DNA of 41,240 nt, from IMG/VR virus record IMGVR_UViG_2541047725_000010. One strand, given 5' to 3'. Shown here piece by piece: positions 1 through 39,981 of the stretch. Source of the DNA: a virus. Its lineage: Duplodnaviria > Heunggongvirae > Uroviricota > Caudoviricetes. A model generated the notes under the pieces. The model was not told the origin of the DNA. It searched no databases and was given only the letters and a program-made list of their open reading frames with translations. Within the stretch, counting starts at the first letter, position 1; each line of letters starts with the position of its first letter. The position numbers and the translations under genes are program-made.

Positions 1-516
1 ATGAAATTTAAAAAATGTCTTCTGCCTGTGGTAATGTTAGCGTCATTCACTCTGGCAGGATGCCAGTCAAATGCTGATGATCATGCCGCCGATGTTTATC
101 AAACCGATCAACTGAATACCAAACAAGAAACTAAAACCGTTAATATTATTTCCATTCTTCCCGCAAAAGTTGCCGTAGACAACTCCCAAAATAAACGAAA
201 CGCACAAGCCTTCGGCGCGCTTATTGGTGCAGTCGCTGGCGGTGTTATTGGCCACAACGTCGGGTCTGGCAGCAATTCCGGAACGACGGCAGGTGCAGTT
301 GGCGGCGGAGCTGTTGGCGCGGCAGCGGGTTCTATGGTGAATGATAAAACCTTAGTGGAAGGTGTTTCTCTAACGTATAAGGAAGGCACCAAAGTGTATA
401 CCTCCACCCAGGTGGGTAAAGAGTGCCAGTTTACGACAGGTTTAGCCGTTGTTATTACCACGACGTATAACGAAACGCGTATTCAGCCAAATACCAAATG
501 TCCTGAAAAGAGCTAA
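1..516 (+). CDS. Glycine-zipper outer-membrane lipoprotein (YcfJ-like); host flank or phage cargo
   Basis: ORF track 171 aa; lipoprotein signal with lipobox LAGC; Gly/Ala-rich zipper AVAGGVIGHNVG resembling YcfJ/OsmB-type lipoproteins (from memory); RBS-less start at window edge. Confidence 0.65.
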   Translation: MKFKKCLLPVVMLASFTLAGCQSNADDHAADVYQTDQLNTKQETKTVNIISILPAKVAVDNSQNKRNAQAFGALIGAVAGGVIGHNVGSGSNSGTTAGAVGGGAVGAAAGSMVNDKTLVEGVSLTYKEGTKVYTSTQVGKECQFTTGLAVVITTTYNETRIQPNTKCPEKS

Positions 517-5965: not shown

Positions 5966-5982
5966 ATTACCTTTATGGTAAT
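5966..5982. promoter_or_regulatory. Operator-like palindrome ATTACC-TTTAT-GGTAAT
   Basis: Perfect inverted half-sites 5 bp apart; one of at least 11 copies of the same motif in intergenic regions. Confidence 0.5.
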
Positions 5983-6018
5983 TTGCAAAACGTGCTGGAT
6001 AGCAAACAAATTATTTGA

Positions 6019-6038
6019 TACTGTATAAATATACAGTT
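6019..6038 (+). promoter_or_regulatory. LexA (SOS) box overlapping the -10 region upstream of gene 6058-6315
   Basis: TACTGTATAAATATACAGTT: CTGT-N8-ACAG, 18/20 to the TACTGTATATATATACAGTA consensus; 20 bp before the GGAG RBS and ATG at 6058. Confidence 0.7.
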
Positions 6039-6057
6039 ATTGCATGGAGAAGATAAG

Positions 6058-6315
6058 ATGCAGCGGTATCACTATCCACTGGAAGACGGATTTACCGAAA
6101 GGATTCACACGCCGGGAGGCGTCAGGTCACTGGTGGAGGGATCGCACTTGATGAAATTACTCCGGGATCTCGATAAGGATGGATTTAATGTCGATGGCCC
6201 ACTTGCCGAACTGACTGCACTGATTAACTACGTCACCAGCTCACAGATGTCTATGCGGGATCTGCAAACACATCTCGACTATTGTGCCGAACAATTACGA
6301 AAACAAACCAGATAA
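6058..6315 (+). CDS. Small protein paralogous to the antirepressor C-terminal domain (SOS-controlled)
   Basis: 85 aa from ATG 6058 (track ORF 6040-6315); aligns by eye at about 50% identity with residues about 160-240 of the adjacent antirepressor (e.g. LMKLLRDLDKDGFNVDGPLAELT vs LMNLLNQLQEDGHDVSGAAAELT). Confidence 0.6.
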   Translation: MQRYHYPLEDGFTERIHTPGGVRSLVEGSHLMKLLRDLDKDGFNVDGPLAELTALINYVTSSQMSMRDLQTHLDYCAEQLRKQTR

Positions 6316-6345
6316 GGTTTGCAATTACCAAGTGGAGTGCTTATA

Positions 6346-6362
6346 TTTACCTTTGAGGTAAA
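6346..6362. promoter_or_regulatory. Operator-like palindrome TTTACC-TTTGA-GGTAAA
   Basis: Same motif family as 5966-5982. Confidence 0.45.
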
Positions 6363-6455
6363 TTTACATCGCACTCCTCTTGTGCCATAGTAATCGGGCA
6401 CTGGCAAAATCCGGTGCCGGGATTGGTCTCCCGGATTACTACAGAGGCACATATG

Positions 6456-6475
6456 CCGCATAAGCGGTTTTTTTT
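6456..6475 (+). terminator. Putative intrinsic terminator after the LexA-controlled small gene
   Basis: Short GC stem CCGC-ataa-GCGG followed by an 8-T run; sits inside a 314-bp hairpin-rich noncoding gap. Confidence 0.4.
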
Positions 6476-6629
6476 ATGTGTAAAGCGCACCTATTCTATG
6501 GTGGGCTGTGTGGGGGCACCGAAAGGTGCGCCGGGTTCCTTTGTAGCCGGTAAGACCAACTCTGCACAGTTCACCACCATCTGATTGGTCTCAGCGGTGG
6601 TGATTAACCTAACTACAAAGGTGATCGCC

Positions 6630-7322
6630 ATGAATACCAAACCTTCCATCTTTTCCTTTGAGTCATCCTGCCAGATCCGTATGTTCATGATTGACGGAGA
6701 ACCTTGGTTTGTCACCAAAGATGTGTGCAATGCTTTGAATATTGATGTTACACAAGCGAGAAAACTTGATAAAAAAGGCTGGAACAAAAAGGGGCTGTAT
6801 TCAATACAGACCCCTGGTGGAATACAAGAACTATCCATCGTTTCAGAATCAGGTCTCTACATCCTTATTCTGCGTTGCAAAGAGGCAATGACTGAGGGAA
6901 CGAGAGCATTCAGATTTCTTGAATGGGTTACAGGCGAGGTTCTTCCTCAGATCCGCCGCACCGGAAGTTACATTAAAAACTCGCTACCGCAGGAAGAACG
7001 CATAAAGATGGTTGCCGACCAGGTAGCCAACGCCACGGCGTCAGCAGTAATGCAGGCGATGAAGATAGAGAACAAAACCTACAACGCCCCGCTGAAGCCC
7101 GGCTACCGCAGCCTGATTCATTCCCCGTCTGGTGTTCTCGGCCTGACGGAGAACTCACTGCTGATGAATCTGCTGAACCAGTTACAGGAAGACGGGCACG
7201 ACGTATCGGGCGCGGCGGCGGAGCTGACCACCATGTTCTGCTACATCGTCGGTGTGAGCAAATGCCTGCGTGATATCCAGACGCACGCGGAGTACATCAA
7301 CGACAAAGCAGGGTTCTTCTGA
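6630..7322 (+). CDS. Phage antirepressor, BRO-N N-terminal domain with KilA-C/Ant-type C-terminal domain
   Basis: 230 aa from ATG 6630 (AAGGTG RBS); N-terminal FSFESSCQIRMFMIDGEPWFVTKDVCNALNI is a BRO-N signature (from memory). Confidence 0.75.
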   Translation: MNTKPSIFSFESSCQIRMFMIDGEPWFVTKDVCNALNIDVTQARKLDKKGWNKKGLYSIQTPGGIQELSIVSESGLYILILRCKEAMTEGTRAFRFLEWVTGEVLPQIRRTGSYIKNSLPQEERIKMVADQVANATASAVMQAMKIENKTYNAPLKPGYRSLIHSPSGVLGLTENSLLMNLLNQLQEDGHDVSGAAAELTTMFCYIVGVSKCLRDIQTHAEYINDKAGFF

Positions 7323-7393
7323 CGGGCGGCGGCACAGGGATGTGCCTTTAAATAATTCTGTACAGATTGCAGACTGGGGGTGAATAGCGTACT

Positions 7394-7410
7394 ATTACCT
7401 TAAAGGTAAA
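7394..7410. promoter_or_regulatory. Operator-like palindrome ATTACC-TTAAA-GGTAAA
   Basis: 41 bp upstream of the ATG at 7452. Confidence 0.45.
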
Positions 7411-7451
7411 CCTGTTTTTATTTTATACCTGTAACTTACCGGAGATTAAAG

Positions 7452-7778
7452 ATGACAAAACTTGGATTCGTGATGAGAGGTCCGGTAAGAAGCGGAACTC
7501 ATGCAAAGCGTAGCAAGAGTCGTATTTTTACTGGTAAGGTTGTAGCACGTAAATCAGCTATTGGCTCGTTCAATAGTGAAAATGCGGCATTGCGCCATAT
7601 TTTTATCAGCACAAAGCCAAGAGCATCCGCTGATGTGCATACAATGACTATTCCTATCACAAAGAATATAAAGCGGATAAAAAAGCTCTCATCTGCAGAA
7701 TCAAAAGAGATATCTTTCCGCCAGCTTAACTCATTAGAAACGCATATGAAGGAAGAGGAATTCGATGTTTTTGAGTGA
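7452..7778 (+). CDS. Basic hypothetical protein, upstream partner of a toxin-like gene
   Basis: 108 aa; strong GGAG RBS; Lys/Arg-rich N-terminus; no family recognised; 14-bp overlap with the next gene. Confidence 0.5.
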   Translation: MTKLGFVMRGPVRSGTHAKRSKSRIFTGKVVARKSAIGSFNSENAALRHIFISTKPRASADVHTMTIPITKNIKRIKKLSSAESKEISFRQLNSLETHMKEEEFDVFE

Positions 7779-8277
7779 GTATAGCGGGAAGGTTATACCT
7801 ACTGGTGAGTTTAAAACTGATGACTTTCTGATTTCGCTAAAAGATGCTTTTAAACAACACTGGCGTCATGGTCATCATCCTGATCTGGGAAAAGATACTC
7901 TTTTTGAAAGACCAGACGAAGTATTAGGTTTCCATCTCAGAAAGGTTCATGTCAATATTGGTGAATATGCATCATATTCATACTCATGTACTGAACAGTG
8001 TTGGGATGAGTGGTCATATGGATTGATTGATGAACAAGGAAATTACAGGCCAAAACCAACCAGTAACGCATATCTCATATATGCAGTCAATGAAATAAGA
8101 GATGCAGCCTTACTAGCTTATTGGGACCCGCCCGCACACACCAAAGCTAACGCAAAAGTTTGGATGGATTCCGTATTGAATTTCACAAAATTATTTCATG
8201 AACGAACGAATACAGCTCCACTTAGTAGAAATGTTTATCCGTGGGATTATTCGTACAAATCCAAAAAGCCTGCATAG
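7765..8277 (+). CDS. YafO-like toxin-family protein (putative ribosome-dependent mRNA interferase)
   Basis: 170 aa; AAGGAAGAGG RBS inside the upstream gene; by-eye similarity to E. coli YafO recalled from memory (G[KR]D-x-L[FY], RKVHVNI vs ERVAHIHL, AYLIYAV vs AHLVYCQ); unverified. Confidence 0.45.
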   Translation: MFLSEYSGKVIPTGEFKTDDFLISLKDAFKQHWRHGHHPDLGKDTLFERPDEVLGFHLRKVHVNIGEYASYSYSCTEQCWDEWSYGLIDEQGNYRPKPTSNAYLIYAVNEIRDAALLAYWDPPAHTKANAKVWMDSVLNFTKLFHERTNTAPLSRNVYPWDYSYKSKKPA

Positions 8278-8543: not shown

Positions 8544-8555
8544 GTGACATGTCAC
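8544..8555. repeat. 12-bp perfect palindrome GTGACATGTCAC, copy 1
   Basis: Overlaps the TGA stop of gene 8552-8848; identical copy at 28897-28908. Confidence 0.6.
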
Positions 8556-25022: not shown

Positions 25023-25111
25023 ATCAATGACTCCGTACGCAATTAAATTATTACCAATTTAACCACATATGATTTATTTATCGTAGATAGTTGACATTTA
25101 ACGCACGAATT

Positions 25112-25128
25112 ATTACCTTTCAGGTAAC
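25112..25128. promoter_or_regulatory. Operator-like palindrome ATTACC-TTTCA-GGTAAC
   Basis: Upstream of the head operon; a TTGACA hexamer lies at 25091-25096. Confidence 0.45.
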
Positions 25129-25449
25129 CAAAGAGTTCATTCCGGTTACTAACCTGACTGGCTTGTCGTTAAATTGAACAGGTGGAGTGAGCTTTTATTT
25201 TGAGCAGTACGGCGTATGGCACATGCGCCGATAGCGGTCTGGATACGTTTAAGGGGCACCCTCCCTTGCTCGGGCAAACGAACCAGGTAGCCGGAATGTG
25301 CAAGTCGAGCGGTTTTATTCCGCGCACGGGGATTCACCATCCCGGCGATTCGGTGTGACGCCTCGGAAGAGACGAGGGTACAACGATGAGAGCATTTATG
25401 GAGCCGCGACAAAGTGTGGCGCCTTAACAGGCTAAGTGCTCTCAGCGTT

Positions 25450-25526
25450 GTGGCATTAGCTCAGTTGGACAGAGCAACCGCCTTCTAAGCGGTTGGTCGC
25501 AGGTTCGAATCCTGCATGCCACGCCA
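25450..25526 (+). tRNA. tRNA-Arg, anticodon UCU (phage-encoded)
   Basis: Hand-folded cloverleaf: 7-bp acceptor GTGGCAT/ATGCCAC, D-stem GCTC/GAGC, anticodon stem ACCGC/GCGGT with loop CTTCTAA, T-stem GCAGG/CCTGC with GGTTCGAATCC, discriminator G and encoded CCA. Confidence 0.85.
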
Positions 25527-25569
25527 GAATCACGCCTAAGGACCGTGATGCCAGAAGTTCCAGGTGCTT

Positions 25570-25611
25570 GGCGGTGATGCTTTCCCTTGAAGGACTATCA
25601 CCGCCCTTTTT
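25570..25611 (+). terminator. Hairpin plus T-run downstream of the tRNA
   Basis: GGCGGTGAT...ATCACCGCC 9-bp stem with large loop, then CTTTTTA. Confidence 0.35.
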
Positions 25612-25689
25612 ACAGCAGGACGCCATTGCGATGACTTCATGCTGTAAACCAGTACAGCCACGGAAGGCATAACTCATTGCTTCCAGTTC

Positions 25690-25712
25690 GCCCACTTCAG
25701 TGGGCTTTTTTT
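25690..25712 (+). terminator. Intrinsic terminator
   Basis: GCCCAC-TTCA-GTGGGC followed by TTTTTTT. Confidence 0.6.
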
Positions 25713-25725
25713 CTAGTGACTACTG

Positions 25726-25742
25726 ATTACCTTATGGGTAAT
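25726..25742. promoter_or_regulatory. Operator-like palindrome ATTACC-TTATG-GGTAAT overlapping a candidate promoter
   Basis: 32 bp upstream of ATG 25774; TAATAT -10-like hexamer at 25739-25744. Confidence 0.5.
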
Positions 25743-25773
25743 ATACTGCAAACTAATAACACAAGGCCGTGAC

Positions 25774-26664
25774 ATGCTTGACTTCATCCGTGACATTTAC
25801 TCCTCTTTCCGCCAAGCATCTCTTGAGCGGGTGAAAAGCCCGTTCCTTGGGGCATTTGTTTTTTCCTGGCTTTGCTTTAATTGGCAGATGTTAGCAATTC
25901 TATTTTTTAGTTCTAAGGATATTGAAAAGCGCCTTGCTATTATTAATGGCTCTTTCGGCATCGTCAGCTTTTTAATTGCGCCAATATGCACTACAGCATT
26001 GATAGTTATCCTTTTACCGCAAATTAATAAATTGATTACAATAATACAAGATAAACCTAACTCAGACACAATTGAAATGAGCCTTGCATCTAAAATAAAG
26101 ATCGCCGAACTGCAGCAACTATTAGCAGAAAATGAAGCAAGAAAGAAACTTGCTGATAAAAAAGAAGAACGCTTCATTGAAGAGAATATTATTTCAATAA
26201 AAAAAGACCATGAAAAAGCAATAGATAACCTTAAAGACAAAGAAAGTAAAATCTCAAATCTCACGGACACAATAACTGAACTTCAGAGCAAACTGGTTAA
26301 AGCTGAGGCCACTCTCAAAGTTGAACAGGAGTCAAGATCCCAAGTGCAGAATGAATTGATTATTGAAAAAGAGAACAAGCGGAAATTAGAAGACAACATT
26401 CTGCACCTTAATTTAAGTTTAAAAAAAAACCAATCAGAATTGGCCATTGCAAAAGAAGCCTATGATAATACCTTGATGGCTTATAATGAACTTAACACAA
26501 CATTAAAAAAAGCAGAAAGCTCAATAATAAACTTCAATGCTAACTTTCCTTTTTTAACTGACATAAATAACAGCACCCCAAATACATACTTAAAAATAAA
26601 TAAAAATGCATGGGAGCATTTAGTTAGTTTAAATTTAAGTCTAAAGGAGAAAATACAAAAATAA
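25774..26664 (+). CDS. Membrane-anchored coiled-coil protein (cargo gene, function unknown)
   Basis: 296 aa; two N-terminal TM helices then about 200 aa of heptad-like Lys/Glu/Leu-rich sequence; very AT-rich; opposite strand to the flanking late genes. Confidence 0.6.
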   Translation: MLDFIRDIYSSFRQASLERVKSPFLGAFVFSWLCFNWQMLAILFFSSKDIEKRLAIINGSFGIVSFLIAPICTTALIVILLPQINKLITIIQDKPNSDTIEMSLASKIKIAELQQLLAENEARKKLADKKEERFIEENIISIKKDHEKAIDNLKDKESKISNLTDTITELQSKLVKAEATLKVEQESRSQVQNELIIEKENKRKLEDNILHLNLSLKKNQSELAIAKEAYDNTLMAYNELNTTLKKAESSIINFNANFPFLTDINNSTPNTYLKINKNAWEHLVSLNLSLKEKIQK

Positions 26665-26687: not shown

Positions 26688-28157
26688 TTACTCATACGGG
26701 TCATAATCTATTATAGCCCTGCCCTGCTGCTGCCGTGGGTCATTAGTTTTCTTGGCTACCGGGAACGCAAACGTCAGCAGTAGCGCATCGCCTTTACCAG
26801 GTGAACGCCCAAGTCGTTCTTTGATATCTTCCTTCGGTTCGATAACGATTTTACCGTCCACGCGAACTTTGTACTCTGCCGCAGACAGATCGTCCGCTGT
26901 TTCCTGGTCATCCAGCATCCCGCCCAACCTCAGCCATGTCTTGCATGAGTTGAACATCTCCCCGCGCTTGTTGAGCATCTGAGGGTCAGTAGACGCGCCG
27001 CCGAACGGAACAAGTTGCCAAGTACGCCCCCAGCCATCACCGATTGACTTCAAACCGGTTCCGTAACCGAAGTCGATGAACACCGCGTCAGCCTGATACT
27101 GGTCTTCAAAGTCAGCGATACGCTTCGCCATAATCAGATCGTCAGTGGTCTTGTTGCCAGTCCACAGCACCTTACTGTGCAGCCCCTGCCGCAGGTATAT
27201 CACAGCGTCATCAACACCGGAGTATGCCGGGTCAACGCCGATTATCACCGGAGCATGTGCCACCTGCGCAGCGGTTACCACCCGTTTCATTGCCTCGTCA
27301 GTAAGACCGGTAGGGATAAACTGCAATTCAGATGCATCCGGGAATATGCCGCGCACACGGATTTTAACGAAGTCGCTGTCTTCCCCGTAGTCATCAACCC
27401 ATTTCTGCAACTGCTGTTTGTTAGTGCCTTCCACCGTCCGGCTGTCAATCTGCGCAGTTTTCCAGCGGTGTTTATATTTGCGGAAACATTCGCGGAAACG
27501 CCCGGTATTACGCGTCGGGTTCCCGAACGCCACCCAGATGATTTCGGTGTCTTCGTCCGTCAGCGCACCCTCTGCTACATCCCACACCAGATCGGCAATG
27601 TTGGATGCTTCGTCGAAAACCACGATGATGCGTTTGCGCTCGTTGTGTAGTCCGGCGAATGCCTCAGTGTTGTGCTCAGACCAGGGGATTGCGTCAGCTC
27701 GCCACCGCTTGTCGTGCCCAGGATCATTGCTGTACATCGCGGTAGCGGTACAGGTAAACCAGTCTTTCGTGATGGCAAGGTTCGACCACTTGATAATTTC
27801 CGGCCAGGTCTTCGTTCGTAGCTGGTTGTCGGTGTTGGCGGTCACCACGACCTTACAATCCTCGCAAGTGGACATGCCCCAGTTGATCAGCATTGAGATG
27901 AATGCGGATTTACCAATACCGTGACCAGAAGCGCGTGCCAGCATAAGCGGCTGATAGCGCGTCTCTGGATTCTGCAGGTGATCACGTATCTCTCGGAACG
28001 CATCGGCCTGCCACTGACGTGGACCGGTAGCATGTGCCAGTTCAGTCCCCTCTTCCCCCCAAGGGAACGCATAGAGGGCATAGCCAAGCGGATCGTGAGT
28101 GAACCCTGCAATATCTTCGATTAACTGCTCTTCAGGAGATAACGCTGCATCTGTCAC
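26688..28157 (-). CDS. Terminase large subunit
   Basis: 489 aa; ATPase then nuclease domain order; upstream of portal; overlaps terminase small. Confidence 0.8.
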   Translation of the reverse strand: MTDAALSPEEQLIEDIAGFTHDPLGYALYAFPWGEEGTELAHATGPRQWQADAFREIRDHLQNPETRYQPLMLARASGHGIGKSAFISMLINWGMSTCEDCKVVVTANTDNQLRTKTWPEIIKWSNLAITKDWFTCTATAMYSNDPGHDKRWRADAIPWSEHNTEAFAGLHNERKRIIVVFDEASNIADLVWDVAEGALTDEDTEIIWVAFGNPTRNTGRFRECFRKYKHRWKTAQIDSRTVEGTNKQQLQKWVDDYGEDSDFVKIRVRGIFPDASELQFIPTGLTDEAMKRVVTAAQVAHAPVIIGVDPAYSGVDDAVIYLRQGLHSKVLWTGNKTTDDLIMAKRIADFEDQYQADAVFIDFGYGTGLKSIGDGWGRTWQLVPFGGASTDPQMLNKRGEMFNSCKTWLRLGGMLDDQETADDLSAAEYKVRVDGKIVIEPKEDIKERLGRSPGKGDALLLTFAFPVAKKTNDPRQQQGRAIIDYDPYE

Positions 28158-28786
28158 TGATTACCATCCTGACGTTCTTTGAGTCGCTTCCTGGCTGCCG
28201 CTATGCGATCAGCAATTGTCACATTCACATTAACATCCAGGCGCTCTTTGAACGCGTTAACGTCGACGTGCTTACCGATGAGCTCGAGGTTTTTCACCTT
28301 GTCGGGCCATTTCACCTTCTTCAGGATATGCTCGACATCCTCAACAGAGAGATCCGCCTCGCCATTCTCTTTTTGCAGAGAAGCCTGGGTCGTCTTGATG
28401 GTAGCGATATCCATAGCACTGAGAGAGGTACGCCAGACCTTCGGCCATTCAGCGATCGGCTTCATCCCGCCGTCATCGTTCAGGATATCCAGCACGTCCA
28501 TCTGGTCGATTTCCACCAGGCGCATGAGAACGTAATCAGCACTGACGCGCATTCGTTTGTTGCGCTCCTCCATCAACTCGGCAATCCGTTTTTGAATGCG
28601 TTCATCGCGCATCATGACACTGGCTTTAACTGCCGCTGTATTTGGGGAGAATCCTGCGTTAATCGCTGCCTGAGTCTGGTTTTCAGGCGTTTTGATGTAT
28701 GACTGGCAATAAGCCTCCTGCATTGCTGTTAGTGGCTTAAATTGCGTTGATTTGCGTTTATAGGTTTTAGGTTCAGCAGGCATCAT
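28154..28786 (-). CDS. Terminase small subunit
   Basis: Start placed at ATG 28786 (GGTGG RBS), about 210 aa; the track start 28864 would put a terminator hairpin inside the ORF. Confidence 0.65.
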   Translation of the reverse strand: MMPAEPKTYKRKSTQFKPLTAMQEAYCQSYIKTPENQTQAAINAGFSPNTAAVKASVMMRDERIQKRIAELMEERNKRMRVSADYVLMRLVEIDQMDVLDILNDDGGMKPIAEWPKVWRTSLSAMDIATIKTTQASLQKENGEADLSVEDVEHILKKVKWPDKVKNLELIGKHVDVNAFKERLDVNVNVTIADRIAAARKRLKERQDGNQ

Positions 28787-28828
28787 AACCACCGTGGTAA
28801 TAGTTACCGTTGTGGTAATAGTACCATG

Positions 28829-28855
28829 CAAAATAAAGCCGCCATAGTTGGCGGC
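28829..28855 (-). terminator. Putative terminator in the late-operon leader
   Basis: On the minus strand GCCGCC-aactat-GGCGGC followed by TTTATTTTG. Confidence 0.45.
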
Positions 28856-28896
28856 AGTATTCAAAACCCATCAAATTCATCATGCATAACCCACTC

Positions 28897-28908
28897 GTGA
28901 CATGTCAC
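28897..28908. repeat. 12-bp perfect palindrome GTGACATGTCAC, copy 2
   Basis: Overlaps the TGA stop of gene 28905-29252 in the same register as copy 1; just upstream of the late-operon leader. Confidence 0.6.
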
Positions 28909-29252
28909 AATATTAATTTCGTTTCATGCCAGCCTTTAGTCACCCAGCATTGCGAGTCACCATTACACGGGCATGAATTCACAGGAACTCTCTCGCCGCA
29001 CTTACCGCAACATTTTCTGCTGATCGATTTTATACGCCCGAGCACGCGTGCATCATCCTGGCGGATCAGTAACGCTATATACTCACCAAATTCGTAAGGC
29101 GCACGCCCGGGGCGACGCGTGGCACAGTTACGCTCCAGCATTTCAATTTCCTGAGCATCAAGCACAATTTCCAGCTTACGCACACCAGATGCAGCTTGTC
29201 TGGCTCTCTGAGCGGCTTTGCGCTCTGCGGGGGATTTAGCCACGAATCGCAC
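28905..29252 (-). CDS. Zinc-ribbon protein, possible late-gene regulator
   Basis: 115 aa; basic N-terminus; C-terminal Cys cluster CCGKCG...CPCNGDSQC; last early gene before the terminase operon; role inferred from position only. Confidence 0.4.
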   Translation of the reverse strand: MRFVAKSPAERKAAQRARQAASGVRKLEIVLDAQEIEMLERNCATRRPGRAPYEFGEYIALLIRQDDARVLGRIKSISRKCCGKCGERVPVNSCPCNGDSQCWVTKGWHETKLIL

Positions 29253-32215: not shown

Positions 32216-32560
32216 TCAGAACTCTTCGATGTTCCAGCCACCACCTGCTTTCTTTGGCTTAACCGTTACCCCGATGATTCGGAACGGATACTGATCTGCG
32301 GCGACTTTGGTTTTCACCCTGGCGTCGTCGGTCCAGAAACCTTTCACTTCGTGCAGTTCCATCTCTCCGGTGGCGAGCATCACAGCGAAATCTGGCGTAT
32401 AGAACGTGTTGTCAGCTAACCGCAGCTTGATACCCTCAAATCGATACCAGACGATTTCTCCTGCACGTTTACGCATCTCAAGGTGCTGACAATACGCAGA
32501 TTCTGTTTTGTTCATCTGGCCTGTTTTGAGTCGACCAAGAGCCTGTATCTGTTTTCTCAT
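32216..32560 (-). CDS. DUF1064-like protein (putative nuclease/resolvase-like)
   Basis: 114 aa; AGEIVWYRFEGIKLRL...YTPDFAV...HEVKG pattern recalled for DUF1064; two operator-like palindromes in its leader. Confidence 0.5.
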   Translation of the reverse strand: MRKQIQALGRLKTGQMNKTESAYCQHLEMRKRAGEIVWYRFEGIKLRLADNTFYTPDFAVMLATGEMELHEVKGFWTDDARVKTKVAADQYPFRIIGVTVKPKKAGGGWNIEEF

Positions 32561-32562
32561 GA

Positions 32563-32579
32563 TTTACCCCTGAGGTAAT
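32563..32579. promoter_or_regulatory. Operator-like palindrome TTTACC-CCTGA-GGTAAT overlapping the RBS of gene 32216-32560
   Basis: Same motif family; 3 bp from the start codon. Confidence 0.45.
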
Positions 32580-32624
32580 TAAAAACCACATAAGACACGA
32601 GATCAATAGATTTTAGAATATTTT

Positions 32625-32641
32625 ATTACCTAATAGGTAAT
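32625..32641. promoter_or_regulatory. Operator-like palindrome ATTACC-TAATA-GGTAAT
   Basis: Perfect half-sites; between the P-like gene terminator and gene 32216-32560. Confidence 0.5.
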
Positions 32642-34587: not shown

Positions 34588-34641
34588 AATAGATATGAAA
34601 AGACCGCCGGGTGGCGGTCTACAGAGGGTTGTGGCTGGATA

Positions 34642-34872: not shown

Positions 34873-34955
34873 AGCTATTGCCTGATATTTATTTCAGATA
34901 ATAAATATTCACCCATAAGGTAACAAAAATCAAGGATAGTTACCTATGGGGTGCA

Positions 34956-34972
34956 TTTACCTGTTGGGTAAT
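34956..34972. promoter_or_regulatory. Operator-like palindrome TTTACC-TGTTG-GGTAAT in the divergent immunity region
   Basis: Within the 154-bp gap between the cro-like and repressor-like genes; a second inverted pair GGTAAC...GTTACC lies at 34919-34944. Confidence 0.5.
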
Positions 34973-35026: not shown

Positions 35027-35611
35027 ATGAAAAGTATCCAGGACGTCCGCAGGCAAAATCTCAACGACTTGATCGACCGTGAATTCAATGGTGTTCAGAC
35101 GCGGATGGCAGAAAAACTTGGAACTCAGGCAAATCTGGTAAACCGCTGGGCTCTTGGCAAGAAGGTTATCGGCGACCAGGTTGCGCGAAAAATTGAAGCT
35201 GCCGCCAATAAACCCCGTAACTGGCTTGATATCGATCGCTCGCTTTCTCAGGAAGGTTTTCAGCCTGTCGGCCCAAGCGACATTGGTCAGCTGGCGGCTC
35301 ACAACCTGGAACGCTGGATGAGCGAAAGCCGCGACCTTTCAACACAGGGAAAACTTCACCGCGCATCCGGCGTCGCCCAGGTGACAATCAGCCGCCTGTT
35401 AAACAATGAGGTCAGCGTTTCCATTTCCACCCTGGAGAATGTTGCATCCGCATTCGGGCGTCACGGCTATGAATTACTGATTCACCCGCACGACCCTGCG
35501 ACCATCAACTATGACCGCTCGCGCTACGCATTGTTACCCGAAACCGAGAAAGCAAAGATCGAAAGTTACATTGAATTTGTCATCAACCAGAACGAAAAAA
35601 ACAAACAATAA
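35027..35611 (+). CDS. Repressor-like regulator with two HTH domains, no recognisable S24 peptidase domain
   Basis: 194 aa; two HTH-like segments (GVQTRMAEKLGTQANLVNRW and ASGVAQVTISRLLNNEVSVS); divergent from the cro-like gene. Confidence 0.6.
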   Translation: MKSIQDVRRQNLNDLIDREFNGVQTRMAEKLGTQANLVNRWALGKKVIGDQVARKIEAAANKPRNWLDIDRSLSQEGFQPVGPSDIGQLAAHNLERWMSESRDLSTQGKLHRASGVAQVTISRLLNNEVSVSISTLENVASAFGRHGYELLIHPHDPATINYDRSRYALLPETEKAKIESYIEFVINQNEKNKQ

Positions 35612-35667: not shown

Positions 35668-35684
35668 ATTACCTTAAGGGTAAT
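35668..35684. promoter_or_regulatory. Operator-like palindrome ATTACC-TTAAG-GGTAAT
   Basis: Perfect half-sites just downstream of the terminator. Confidence 0.5.
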
Positions 35685-35702
35685 TTTTTTAACTCATATC
35701 TA

Positions 35703-35746
35703 TTGACACCAAACCAAATACGCATAATCATTACCTCAACGGTAAC
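35703..35746 (+). promoter_or_regulatory. Candidate early promoter (TTGACA ... CATAAT) with operator ATTACC-TCAAC-GGTAAC at its start region
   Basis: TTGACA at 35703-35708, CATAAT at 35723-35728 (short spacer of about 14 bp), palindrome at 35730-35746; drives the plus-strand operon from 35765. Confidence 0.4.
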
Positions 35747-39325: not shown

Positions 39326-39981
39326 ACCTATATCAACGCATCAATGGTGCTGACTGGTGCAATATCTTCGTCGTCGGCGATCTGCATGGGTGCTACACGC
39401 TGCTGATGAACGAACTCGACAAAGTTTCATTCGACCCGGCGCGCGATTTACTTATTTCCGTTGGTGACCTTGTTGACCGCGGCGCTGAAAACGTCGAATG
39501 CCTGGATTTGATTACTATGCCGTGGTTCCGAGCTGTTCGTGGCAACCATGAGCAGATGATGCTGGATGCACTGGTCAACGGCGGAAGTTTCGGACATTGG
39601 ATGTCAAACGGCGGTGGATGGTGGCACCAACTTGATTCTGAGCAGGATGTGCAACTCAAATACCTTCTGCCAAAGATTACCAACCTCCCGATGATTATCG
39701 AACTGGTTACCGGCAATAAGAAGGTCGTCATCTGTCACGCAGACTACCCGCACAACGAATACGCATTCGATAAGCCAGTACCAGAAGAAATGGTGATATG
39801 GAATCGTGAGCGGGTTAGCGACGCGCAGGACGGTATTGTCTCGGAGATAACCGGTGCCGATTTGTTCATCTTCGGTCATACGCCAGCACATCACCCACTG
39901 GTGTATGCAAACCAGATGTACATCGACACCGGCGCAGTGTTCTGCGGAAATCTGACGCTTACCAAAGTCCAGGAAGGATAG
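39322..39981 (+). CDS. Serine/threonine protein phosphatase, lambda PPase-like
   Basis: 219 aa from ATG 39322; [29 protein letters not shown] and FGHTP motifs. Confidence 0.85.

Follow-up and report, generated by a model that had tools for sequence, protein, structure and literature searches.

The stretch ahead of the terminase genes in the window (the whole 41,240-nt stretch of viral DNA that was analysed) is probably the boundary between two transcription units, composed of an intrinsic terminator, an extended -10 promoter controlled by the prophage repressor Rep, and the genes for the small (TerS) and large (TerL) terminase subunits. The terminator would close the upstream unit, and an extended -10 sigma-70 promoter (TGgTACTAT), located immediately past the T-run, would start the TerS–TerL transcript near position 28811. 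Two putative operators would govern this promoter: site A would cover the end of the -10 element and the start point, and the weaker site B would cover the ribosome-binding site. In a lysogen, Rep on both operators would shut the terminase promoter, and the terminator would halt the transcription arriving from upstream. Once Rep is inactivated, the promoter would fire, with no need for read-through of the terminator. In phage SPC32H, Rep is reportedly inactivated by a LexA-controlled antirepressor. The feature is an ordinary one and essentially already known, orthologous features being annotated in phage epsilon15.

Judging from its nucleotide identity to phages phiv142-3, TL-2011b, phiV10, and Tyrion, the window is a member of the genus Uetakevirus (epsilon15/phiV10 type). 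The 800 bp around the locus share 92–98% identity with the Escherichia phages phiv142-3, TL-2011b, phiV10, and others, the TerS part shares 84–88% identity with Enterobacter phage Tyrion and with a Salmonella epsilon15-type phage, and the gene order agrees with that of phiv142-3. All genes of the region are on the minus strand in the list of open reading frames (ORFs); their order from 5′ to 3′ on that strand is a 115-aa ORF, the palindrome GTGACATGTCAC, an 8-codon ORF, the hairpin, the T-run TTTATTTT, the stretch GCATGGTACTATTACCACAACGGTAACTATTACCACGGTGGTTATGATG, TerS, and TerL, the two terminase genes overlapping by 4 nt (Table 1). The comparison set comprised 80 close relatives (viral contigs), 10 prophages of other genera (Klebsiella, Scandinavium, Pseudocitrobacter, Citrobacter, Erwinia, Superficieibacter, Kluyvera, Pseudescherichia, and Buttiauxella), and phages epsilon15, 66FD, BUCT554, and Kp4865-1. 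In the literature on phages ZX5 and Tyrion, permuted ends are all that turns up on the region upstream of TerS. An Rfam scan of the whole window gave no match in that region, the only matches being C4, isrK, and a tRNA, all of them elsewhere; the P1-like C4 antisense RNA adjoins an antirepressor gene.

Table 1. Features of the terminase boundary and related elements of the window (a dot marks features without strand).
Feature	Position	Strand	Basis and remarks
TerL, large terminase	26688–28157	-	ORF list; relatives annotate terminase large subunit
TerS, small terminase	28154–28783	-	PF03592 at 5e-28; start-codon conservation
Predicted operator site B, weaker	28785–28801	.	ATTACCACGGTGGTTAT on minus strand; 1 mismatch; 8.4 bits
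Predicted operator site A	28803–28819	.	ATTACCACAACGGTAAC on minus strand; 1 mismatch; 17.1 bits; orthologous to epsilon15 protein_bind 12..27
Predicted extended -10 element TGgTACTAT	28818–28826	-	TG 28826–28825, hexamer 28823–28818
Predicted intrinsic (rho-independent) terminator	28830–28855	-	7-bp stem 28855–28849/28844–28838, loop ACTA, T-run 28837–28830
8-codon mini-ORF MHDEFDGF*	28861–28887	-	ATG CAT GAT GAA TTT GAT GGG TTT TGA
Perfect 12-bp palindrome GTGACATGTCAC	28897–28908	.	Overlaps TGA stop of 115-aa gene
115-aa gene, epsilon15 gp49-like	28905–29252	-	PHROG 536 at 1e-53; last gene of upstream unit
Putative operator pair	32563–32641	.	Precedes 114-aa ORF (32216–32560, minus strand)
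Rep, prophage repressor	35027–35611	+	Matches SPC32H Rep (PDB 5D50), E = 4e-42, residues 1–190
Putative operator pair downstream of rep	35668–35746	.	35730 site 1 nt past near-consensus promoter TTGACA-17-CATAAT; reference promoter–operator layout
Good motif sites	5966, 6346, 7394, 25112, 25726, 28785, 28803, 32563, 32625, 34908, 34956, 35668, 35730

The preliminary description of this DNA had placed a hairpin-plus-T-run terminator ahead of TerS, and this element holds up. Its sequence, GCCGCCA-ACTA-TGGCGGC (28855–28838), forms a GC-rich stem-loop, with six of the seven stem pairs being G–C, directly before the U-tract on the transcribed strand. It ranks first among the terminator-like matches in a scan from 27.5 to 30.5 kb, and an orthologue is annotated in epsilon15. 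Its folding energy is about -14.4 kcal/mol (RNAfold), and values from -13 to -16 kcal/mol are found in nearly all hairpin-bearing relatives. Among these relatives, the stem changes only by single substitutions that preserve pairing as G·U (A–U to G·U, C–G to U·G), with no double compensatory change found. There are, on the other hand, four relatives with no terminator before TerS (BUCT554, Kp4865-1, L093, and L095), in which a LexA-box-driven UmuD-like gene replaces the mini-ORF and the terminator. When these four are aligned with the terminator-bearing relatives, similarity resumes at about the TG of the -10 element; therefore, what stays constant appears to be the promoter–operator block, and the terminator seems to belong to the upstream module as an optional component. 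The predicted terminator would probably end an upstream unit formed by the 115-aa gene and a variable accessory slot.

The tandem repeats that had been noticed in the leader are also real. An exact 11-nt direct repeat, GTGGTAATAGT, is present in two copies only, at 28794–28804 and 28812–28822, 18 nt apart, and we put the probability that a region of 120 nt would by chance hold two identical 11-mers no more than 40 nt apart at about 1e-3. Two 17-bp palindromes of the form ATTACC-N5-GGTAAT (sites A and B in Table 1) are a better description of these repeats, the direct repeat arising because two palindromic sites are adjacent, with their centres 18 bp apart. This palindrome is not restricted to the leader: allowing up to two mismatches, it is found 14 times in the window against 1.2 expected (none of 100 shuffles attains 14), and its core, TTACC-N5-GGTAA, is found 14 times with at most one mismatch against 0.64 expected. 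In total the motif amounts to about 12 sites genome-wide, mostly clustered around the repressor gene and also placed ahead of other transcription units. With a PWM trained on 10 sites only, all of them outside the TerS leader, site A is the best non-training match in the 41-kb window, a score that 1 of 20 shuffled genomes attains; this site runs into the end of the -10 element and takes in the predicted start. The score of site B falls within the range of chance matches and is not significant by itself. This second site overlaps the Shine–Dalgarno sequence GGTGG (28793–28789) and the first ATG, and in the relatives its half-sites are kept and its spacer varies.

Conservation and arrangement both point to a repressor operator. 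The half-sites before TerS are kept in all relatives compared, spanning Klebsiella, Scandinavium, Pseudocitrobacter, Citrobacter, Erwinia, Superficieibacter, Kluyvera, Pseudescherichia, Buttiauxella, Enterobacter, and Salmonella relatives, and the 5-nt spacers within them differ (ACAAC, AAAAC, ATAAC, AAATG, TGCAT, TAAAA, ATATT, and others). In fact, every Uetakevirus relative retrieved shares the ATTACC/GGTAAT half-sites, with no heteroimmune operator variant among them. The cognate repressor is encoded in the same genome, and operator clusters flank rep on both sides, at 34908–34972 (sites 34908 and 34956) and at 35668–35746 (sites 35668 and 35730). Abutting pairs at 17–18 bp are not peculiar to the TerS leader: epsilon15 and other relatives have them, as does the operator region beside rep, and a distance of about 62 bp within a pair is common as well. 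One of the pairs, at 32563–32641, is placed so that its second site abuts the Shine–Dalgarno sequence and ATG of the 114-aa ORF, like site B at TerS, and the operators at 35668 and 25726 are directly 3′ of a terminator, like those of the TerS leader. The suggestion that the repeats could be a regulator site agrees with these observations, since the same palindrome is annotated as a repressor site in epsilon15 and is dispersed around rep. Sites A and B are thus putative operators of the prophage repressor, to which Rep would probably bind.

The predicted promoter is located directly 5′ of site A, where TGnTAnTAT is invariant in 14 of 14 diverged sequences from about 10 genera, including the four without terminator. 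This element fits the extended -10 promoter TGnTATAAT, in which one base separates the TG from a TAnnnT hexamer, although TGnTAnnnT alone would be met by chance in a 70-nt spacer in about 7% of cases. The flanks of the other operators in the window, unlike TGnTAnTAT before TerS, are not conserved. Polymorphism among close relatives tells the same positions apart. In 81 loci that align without indels, there are 10 polymorphic positions, 8 of them between the T-run and the ATG. The operator spacers, the gap between the sites, the n of TGn, the third (non-consensus) base of the -10 hexamer, and the first ATG account for all eight; the half-sites (24 positions), the TG, and the key positions of the -10 hexamer (T1, A2, A5, T6) show none. 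A hypergeometric estimate for all 8 falling in the 17 free positions of 46 is about 1e-4. Another indication is the recurrence of a -10 hexamer ending 0–1 nt before an operator, at 7394 (TTGCAG-17-TACTAT followed directly by TACC, a TACTAT/TACC junction identical to that of the TerS leader), at 6346 (TTGCAA-17-TATATT, again followed directly by TACC), and at 35730 (TTGACA-17-CATAAT-c-ATTACC). There is no usable -35 before the TerS -10 hexamer, TATGGC matching the consensus at one of six positions by our own count, and a consensus promoter scan did not report the TGgTACTAT element. We infer that transcription starts at this predicted promoter and that the TerS–TerL transcript probably includes further structural genes. 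Control by Rep alone would turn the terminase on immediately at induction, with no obvious early/late timing; therefore, an additional factor is possible.

The closest known counterpart is found in epsilon15 (GenBank AY150271.2). In this record a rho-independent terminator is annotated at 39646–39672, the last 27 bases; a feature labelled "protein_bind: repressor, lysogeny" at 12..27 corresponds to TTACCAAAACGGTAAT, and TerS begins at 47. Read across the joined ends of the record, GTGACATGTCAC comes first, further on GGCCGCCGACTATGGCGGCTTTGTTTT reaches the junction, and GCGTGTTACTATTACCAAAACGGTAATTATTACTTCGGTGGTAACAATG follows it. All seven annotated epsilon15 repressor sites have the form ATTACC-N5-GGTAAT, although these protein_bind features may themselves be predictions. 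The hairpin GCCGCCGACTATGGCGGC with its T-run, the operator palindrome, the distance to TerS, and the upstream gp49-like gene with GTGACATGTCAC are all as in the window. The two differ in that the window alone has an 8-codon remnant between GTGACATGTCAC and the terminator, in their spacers, and in that the epsilon15 record annotates one site only, with neither the second weaker site nor a promoter. As for the repressor, that of the window is homologous to SPC32H Rep (PDB 5D50 and 5D4Z) over its full length and has a conserved helix region (...NLVNRW...), although about 45% of the residues differ between the two. Rep reportedly binds palindromic sites in the form of a tetramer (PMC9638917). A tetrameric Rep would fit the paired operators of the window, whether 17–18 bp or about 62 bp apart. 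By analogy, the predicted arrangement also resembles those of P1 C1 and of gp71 of mycobacteriophage L5, in which a single lysogeny repressor has many scattered sites beyond the immunity region. The P1 operators are asymmetric 17-mers, and the P1 late genes need the activator Lpa; the L5 stoperators are asymmetric and oriented, and block elongation. The sites of the window differ from both in being symmetric and in being located at (predicted) promoters.

The start of TerS has a bearing on which elements are intergenic. The preliminary description set it at the ATG at 28786; the relatives place it elsewhere, because the ATG conserved among them is the second one, at 28783. In epsilon15-type relatives only the equivalent of 28783 is an ATG, and in one E. 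coli variant the first ATG is lost, so that 28786 is better regarded as an in-frame alternative. A still longer TerS, read from the TTG at 28864 and taking in the hairpin and the repeats as intragenic sequences, is scarcely conceivable. The open frame does run on from this TTG, and the phiV10 RefSeq record annotates an equivalent start; on the other hand, in the relatives the 28864 stretch shows 1–2 nt indels and complete sequence replacement, the Pfam TerS domain starts at residue 19 as counted from the ATG at 28786, a good Shine–Dalgarno sequence (GGTGG) stands ahead of the conserved ATG, and the short form of TerS is annotated in TL-2011b, epsilon15, and others. The TTG start was rejected as a longest-ORF artefact, and the phiV10 TerS annotation is, on this comparison, an over-extension that takes in the terminator and the operators.

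Other explanations of the locus can be weighed against a Rep-controlled promoter. A fair though unlikely alternative is that TerS has no promoter and is transcribed by polymerase that arrives from upstream and passes a leaky or anti-terminated terminator, with Rep on sites A and B acting in the manner of stoperators to block elongation into the late genes in the lysogen. Such a roadblock would account for the missing -35 and for the silence of the consensus scan, the sites are in a workable position between the terminator and the ATG, and dispersed repressor sites acting on elongation are known from L5 gp71. However, it would leave unexplained why TG-n-TAnTAT is invariant in 14 diverged relatives when the flanks of other operators are not, and why the register of -10 and operator is shared by three other sites with good -35 hexamers; besides, the sites are palindromic and have no orientation. 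The preliminary description favoured yet another arrangement, in which late expression depends on antitermination or a dedicated activator, that is, an upstream late promoter with an antiterminator, perhaps the 115-aa protein, comparable to lambda Q at pR′-tR′. The likeness to lambda consists of a terminator, and a strong one, between the last early gene (here that for the 115-aa protein) and the late genes; in addition, PHROG 536 carries the label "transcriptional regulator", and the conserved palindrome GTGACATGTCAC, just upstream of the TerS-proximal and other terminators, could be a factor-loading site. A promoter-like sequence, GTGACA-18-CATGAT, even overlaps this palindrome, but it scores 9/12, a level reached twice in the window against 3.1 expected in shuffles, and its -10 falls in DNA that is replaced in the relatives; with a chance-level score and a non-conserved -10, it was rejected as a pR′-like promoter. 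Unlike lambda, the window has neither a Q-family protein nor a conserved promoter upstream of the terminator: its conserved promoter-like element is downstream, and the terminator is dispensable, the four relatives without it keeping the promoter–operator block. Moreover, the 115-aa protein matches no Q, N, or Ogr/Delta family and its structure model is unreliable, and phiES15, which does have a Q-like gene, shows (by annotation only) a lambda-like gene order with a related TerS placed after the lysis genes, a different arrangement. With a conserved -10 element downstream of the terminator and abutting the Rep sites, this dependence was not borne out, and the arrangement is very unlikely; antitermination at the hairpin would not be required because TerS and TerL appear to have their own promoter downstream of it.

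The same description had also considered the repeats as a terminase recognition element, and this role fared no better. The repeats would then be a pac element, recognised by the small terminase subunit at the start of headful packaging. They adjoin the TerS gene, a frequent location for pac, the virion DNA of Tyrion is terminally redundant and circularly permuted, and several GenBank records start near the repeats. Because of the state of Tyrion DNA, headful packaging from some pac site is to be expected in the group; for the same reason, however, record starts near TerS are to be taken as conventions, and in fact the phiV10 record begins directly past the stop codon of the last gene. The dispersal of the motif over the genome, with about 12 sites that are densest around the repressor gene, leaves a pac role of the repeats themselves unsupported, and epsilon15 annotates the motif as a repressor site. 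Aeromonas phage 56, whose TerS is 54% identical, has a terminator and TGgTATATT before TerS and shows no dispersed copies of the motif. The pac explanation is accordingly highly improbable, and a promoter under Rep control is the preferred reading of the block.

The unit upstream of this predicted promoter ends in a region of variable content. Searches of Pfam, NCBIfam, and PDB gave no match for the 115-aa protein, whether to a Q-type or to another known regulator family, and its AlphaFold model, built with 20 homologues, has a pLDDT of 55.6. The mini-ORF that follows is a deletion remnant of an accessory gene of about 70 aa (PHROG 1541); of the 80 close relatives, more than 20 retain this gene intact (e.g., L029, L036, and L041). 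A leader peptide controlling the terminator was rejected as the main reading of the mini-ORF, the latter being absent in epsilon15, L096, and L099, and frameshifted or altered in several E. coli variants. The slot between palindrome and terminator can be empty, as in epsilon15, or hold the mini-ORF, other small ORFs, or the LexA-controlled UmuD-like gene. As for the palindrome, a second exact copy of GTGACATGTCAC is present in the window at 8544–8555, where it again overlaps a stop codon and a terminator follows 2 nt further on. There are three copies in epsilon15, and in the prophages of other genera the sequence is invariant after both the gp49-like gene and TerL, each copy adjoining a terminator and the variable DNA. 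With two to three copies per genome just upstream of unit-end terminators, GTGACATGTCAC may be a functional site, although this is rather doubtful. A phage factor that tunes termination, possibly the 115-aa zinc-cysteine protein, may load at this palindrome or recognise it; or else the palindrome may be a target or junction sequence directing the insertion and exchange of accessory genes. If the former were true, the idea of regulated termination ahead of the late genes would hold in part, alongside the repressor-controlled promoter.

In phages of the Uetakevirus type, then, antitermination does not follow from the presence of a terminator ahead of the structural genes, since a separate promoter, controlled directly by the lysogeny repressor, appears to serve the terminase genes. 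The repeats, for their part, belong to a genome-wide set of putative operators and are not private to the TerS leader. This is of use for annotating very common prophages of E. coli, Salmonella, and Klebsiella, the over-extended TerS of phiV10 being an example, and also for the engineering of phiV10-type reporter phages and the reading of experiments on the Rep/Ant switch.

The perfect 12-bp palindrome GTGACATGTCAC is present in the window as two exact copies, the chance expectation for a second one in 41 kb being about 0.005, and has also been found in epsilon15 (L090) and in prophages of other genera (L091–L100). Its recurrent place in all of these is the end of transcription units, where it overlaps a stop codon or lies just after one and is followed shortly downstream by an intrinsic terminator. 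DNA that varies among phages, in the form of accessory-gene slots, adjoins the palindrome.

In the slot ahead of the small terminase gene (TerS), the 8-codon ORF MHDEFDGF* is what remains of a gene of about 70 aa (PHROG 1541), which is intact in many relatives. The form MxDEFDGF* has been found in four further genera, with only synonymous changes apart from the variable codon 2; the E. coli versions include missense and frameshift variants. This slot can instead hold a UmuD-like gene, which has a promoter of its own together with a perfect LexA box (TACTGT-N8-ACAGTA) and is carried by BUCT554 (L004 3330–3400), two of the prophages of other genera (L093 and L095) and the relative L085; the terminator before TerS is absent in these four carriers.

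The annotated TTG start of TerS in phiV10 (RefSeq NC_007804.2; L002 41–715) lies upstream of the terminator and operators, and is probably over-extended. A distant TerS homologue (54% identity) is that of Aeromonas phage 56, in which, as in the window, a terminator and then an extended -10-like element, in this phage TGGTATATT, precede the gene (L101 11860–11995). The half-sites ATTACC and GGTAAC are also found there before TerS, but spaced 14 nt, and no further copies of this half-site motif occur elsewhere in 24 kb of that phage.

Features in the window, with palindrome positions in epsilon15
Feature	Position	Strand	Remark
Palindrome GTGACATGTCAC	28897–28908; 8544–8555		
Palindrome, epsilon15 (L090)	2142; 19517; 39612		
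MHDEFDGF* ORF	28861–28887	minus	
Block between TerL and portal gene	25090–26664	plus	
TTGACA promoter	operator 25112		overlapped by predicted Rep operator; first in block
tRNA-Arg(TCT)	25450–25526		second in block
Terminator	25690–25705		after tRNA
Second predicted Rep operator of block	25726		after terminator
296-aa ORF			PHROG 13369; last in block
Terminator-like hairpin	34601–34620	minus	8 bp, 6 G-C, T-run
Immunity module	5966–8277	plus	
Predicted Rep operators	5966; 6346; 7394		in module
isrK RNA	6398–6474		Rfam; upstream of 245-aa ORF
C4 antisense RNA	6494–6581		Rfam; upstream of 245-aa ORF
Antirepressor-like ORF, 245 aa	6585–7322	plus	

Predicted operators of the lysogeny repressor Rep also lie in the block between the large terminase (TerL) and portal genes, which is antisense to the structural genes and whose 296-aa ORF is not in phiv142-3. 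In the early part of the rightward early unit, 3' of the divergent promoter region adjoining the repressor gene, a strong terminator-like hairpin recalls lambda tR1. Finally, three more predicted operators belong to what is a P1-like secondary immunity module.
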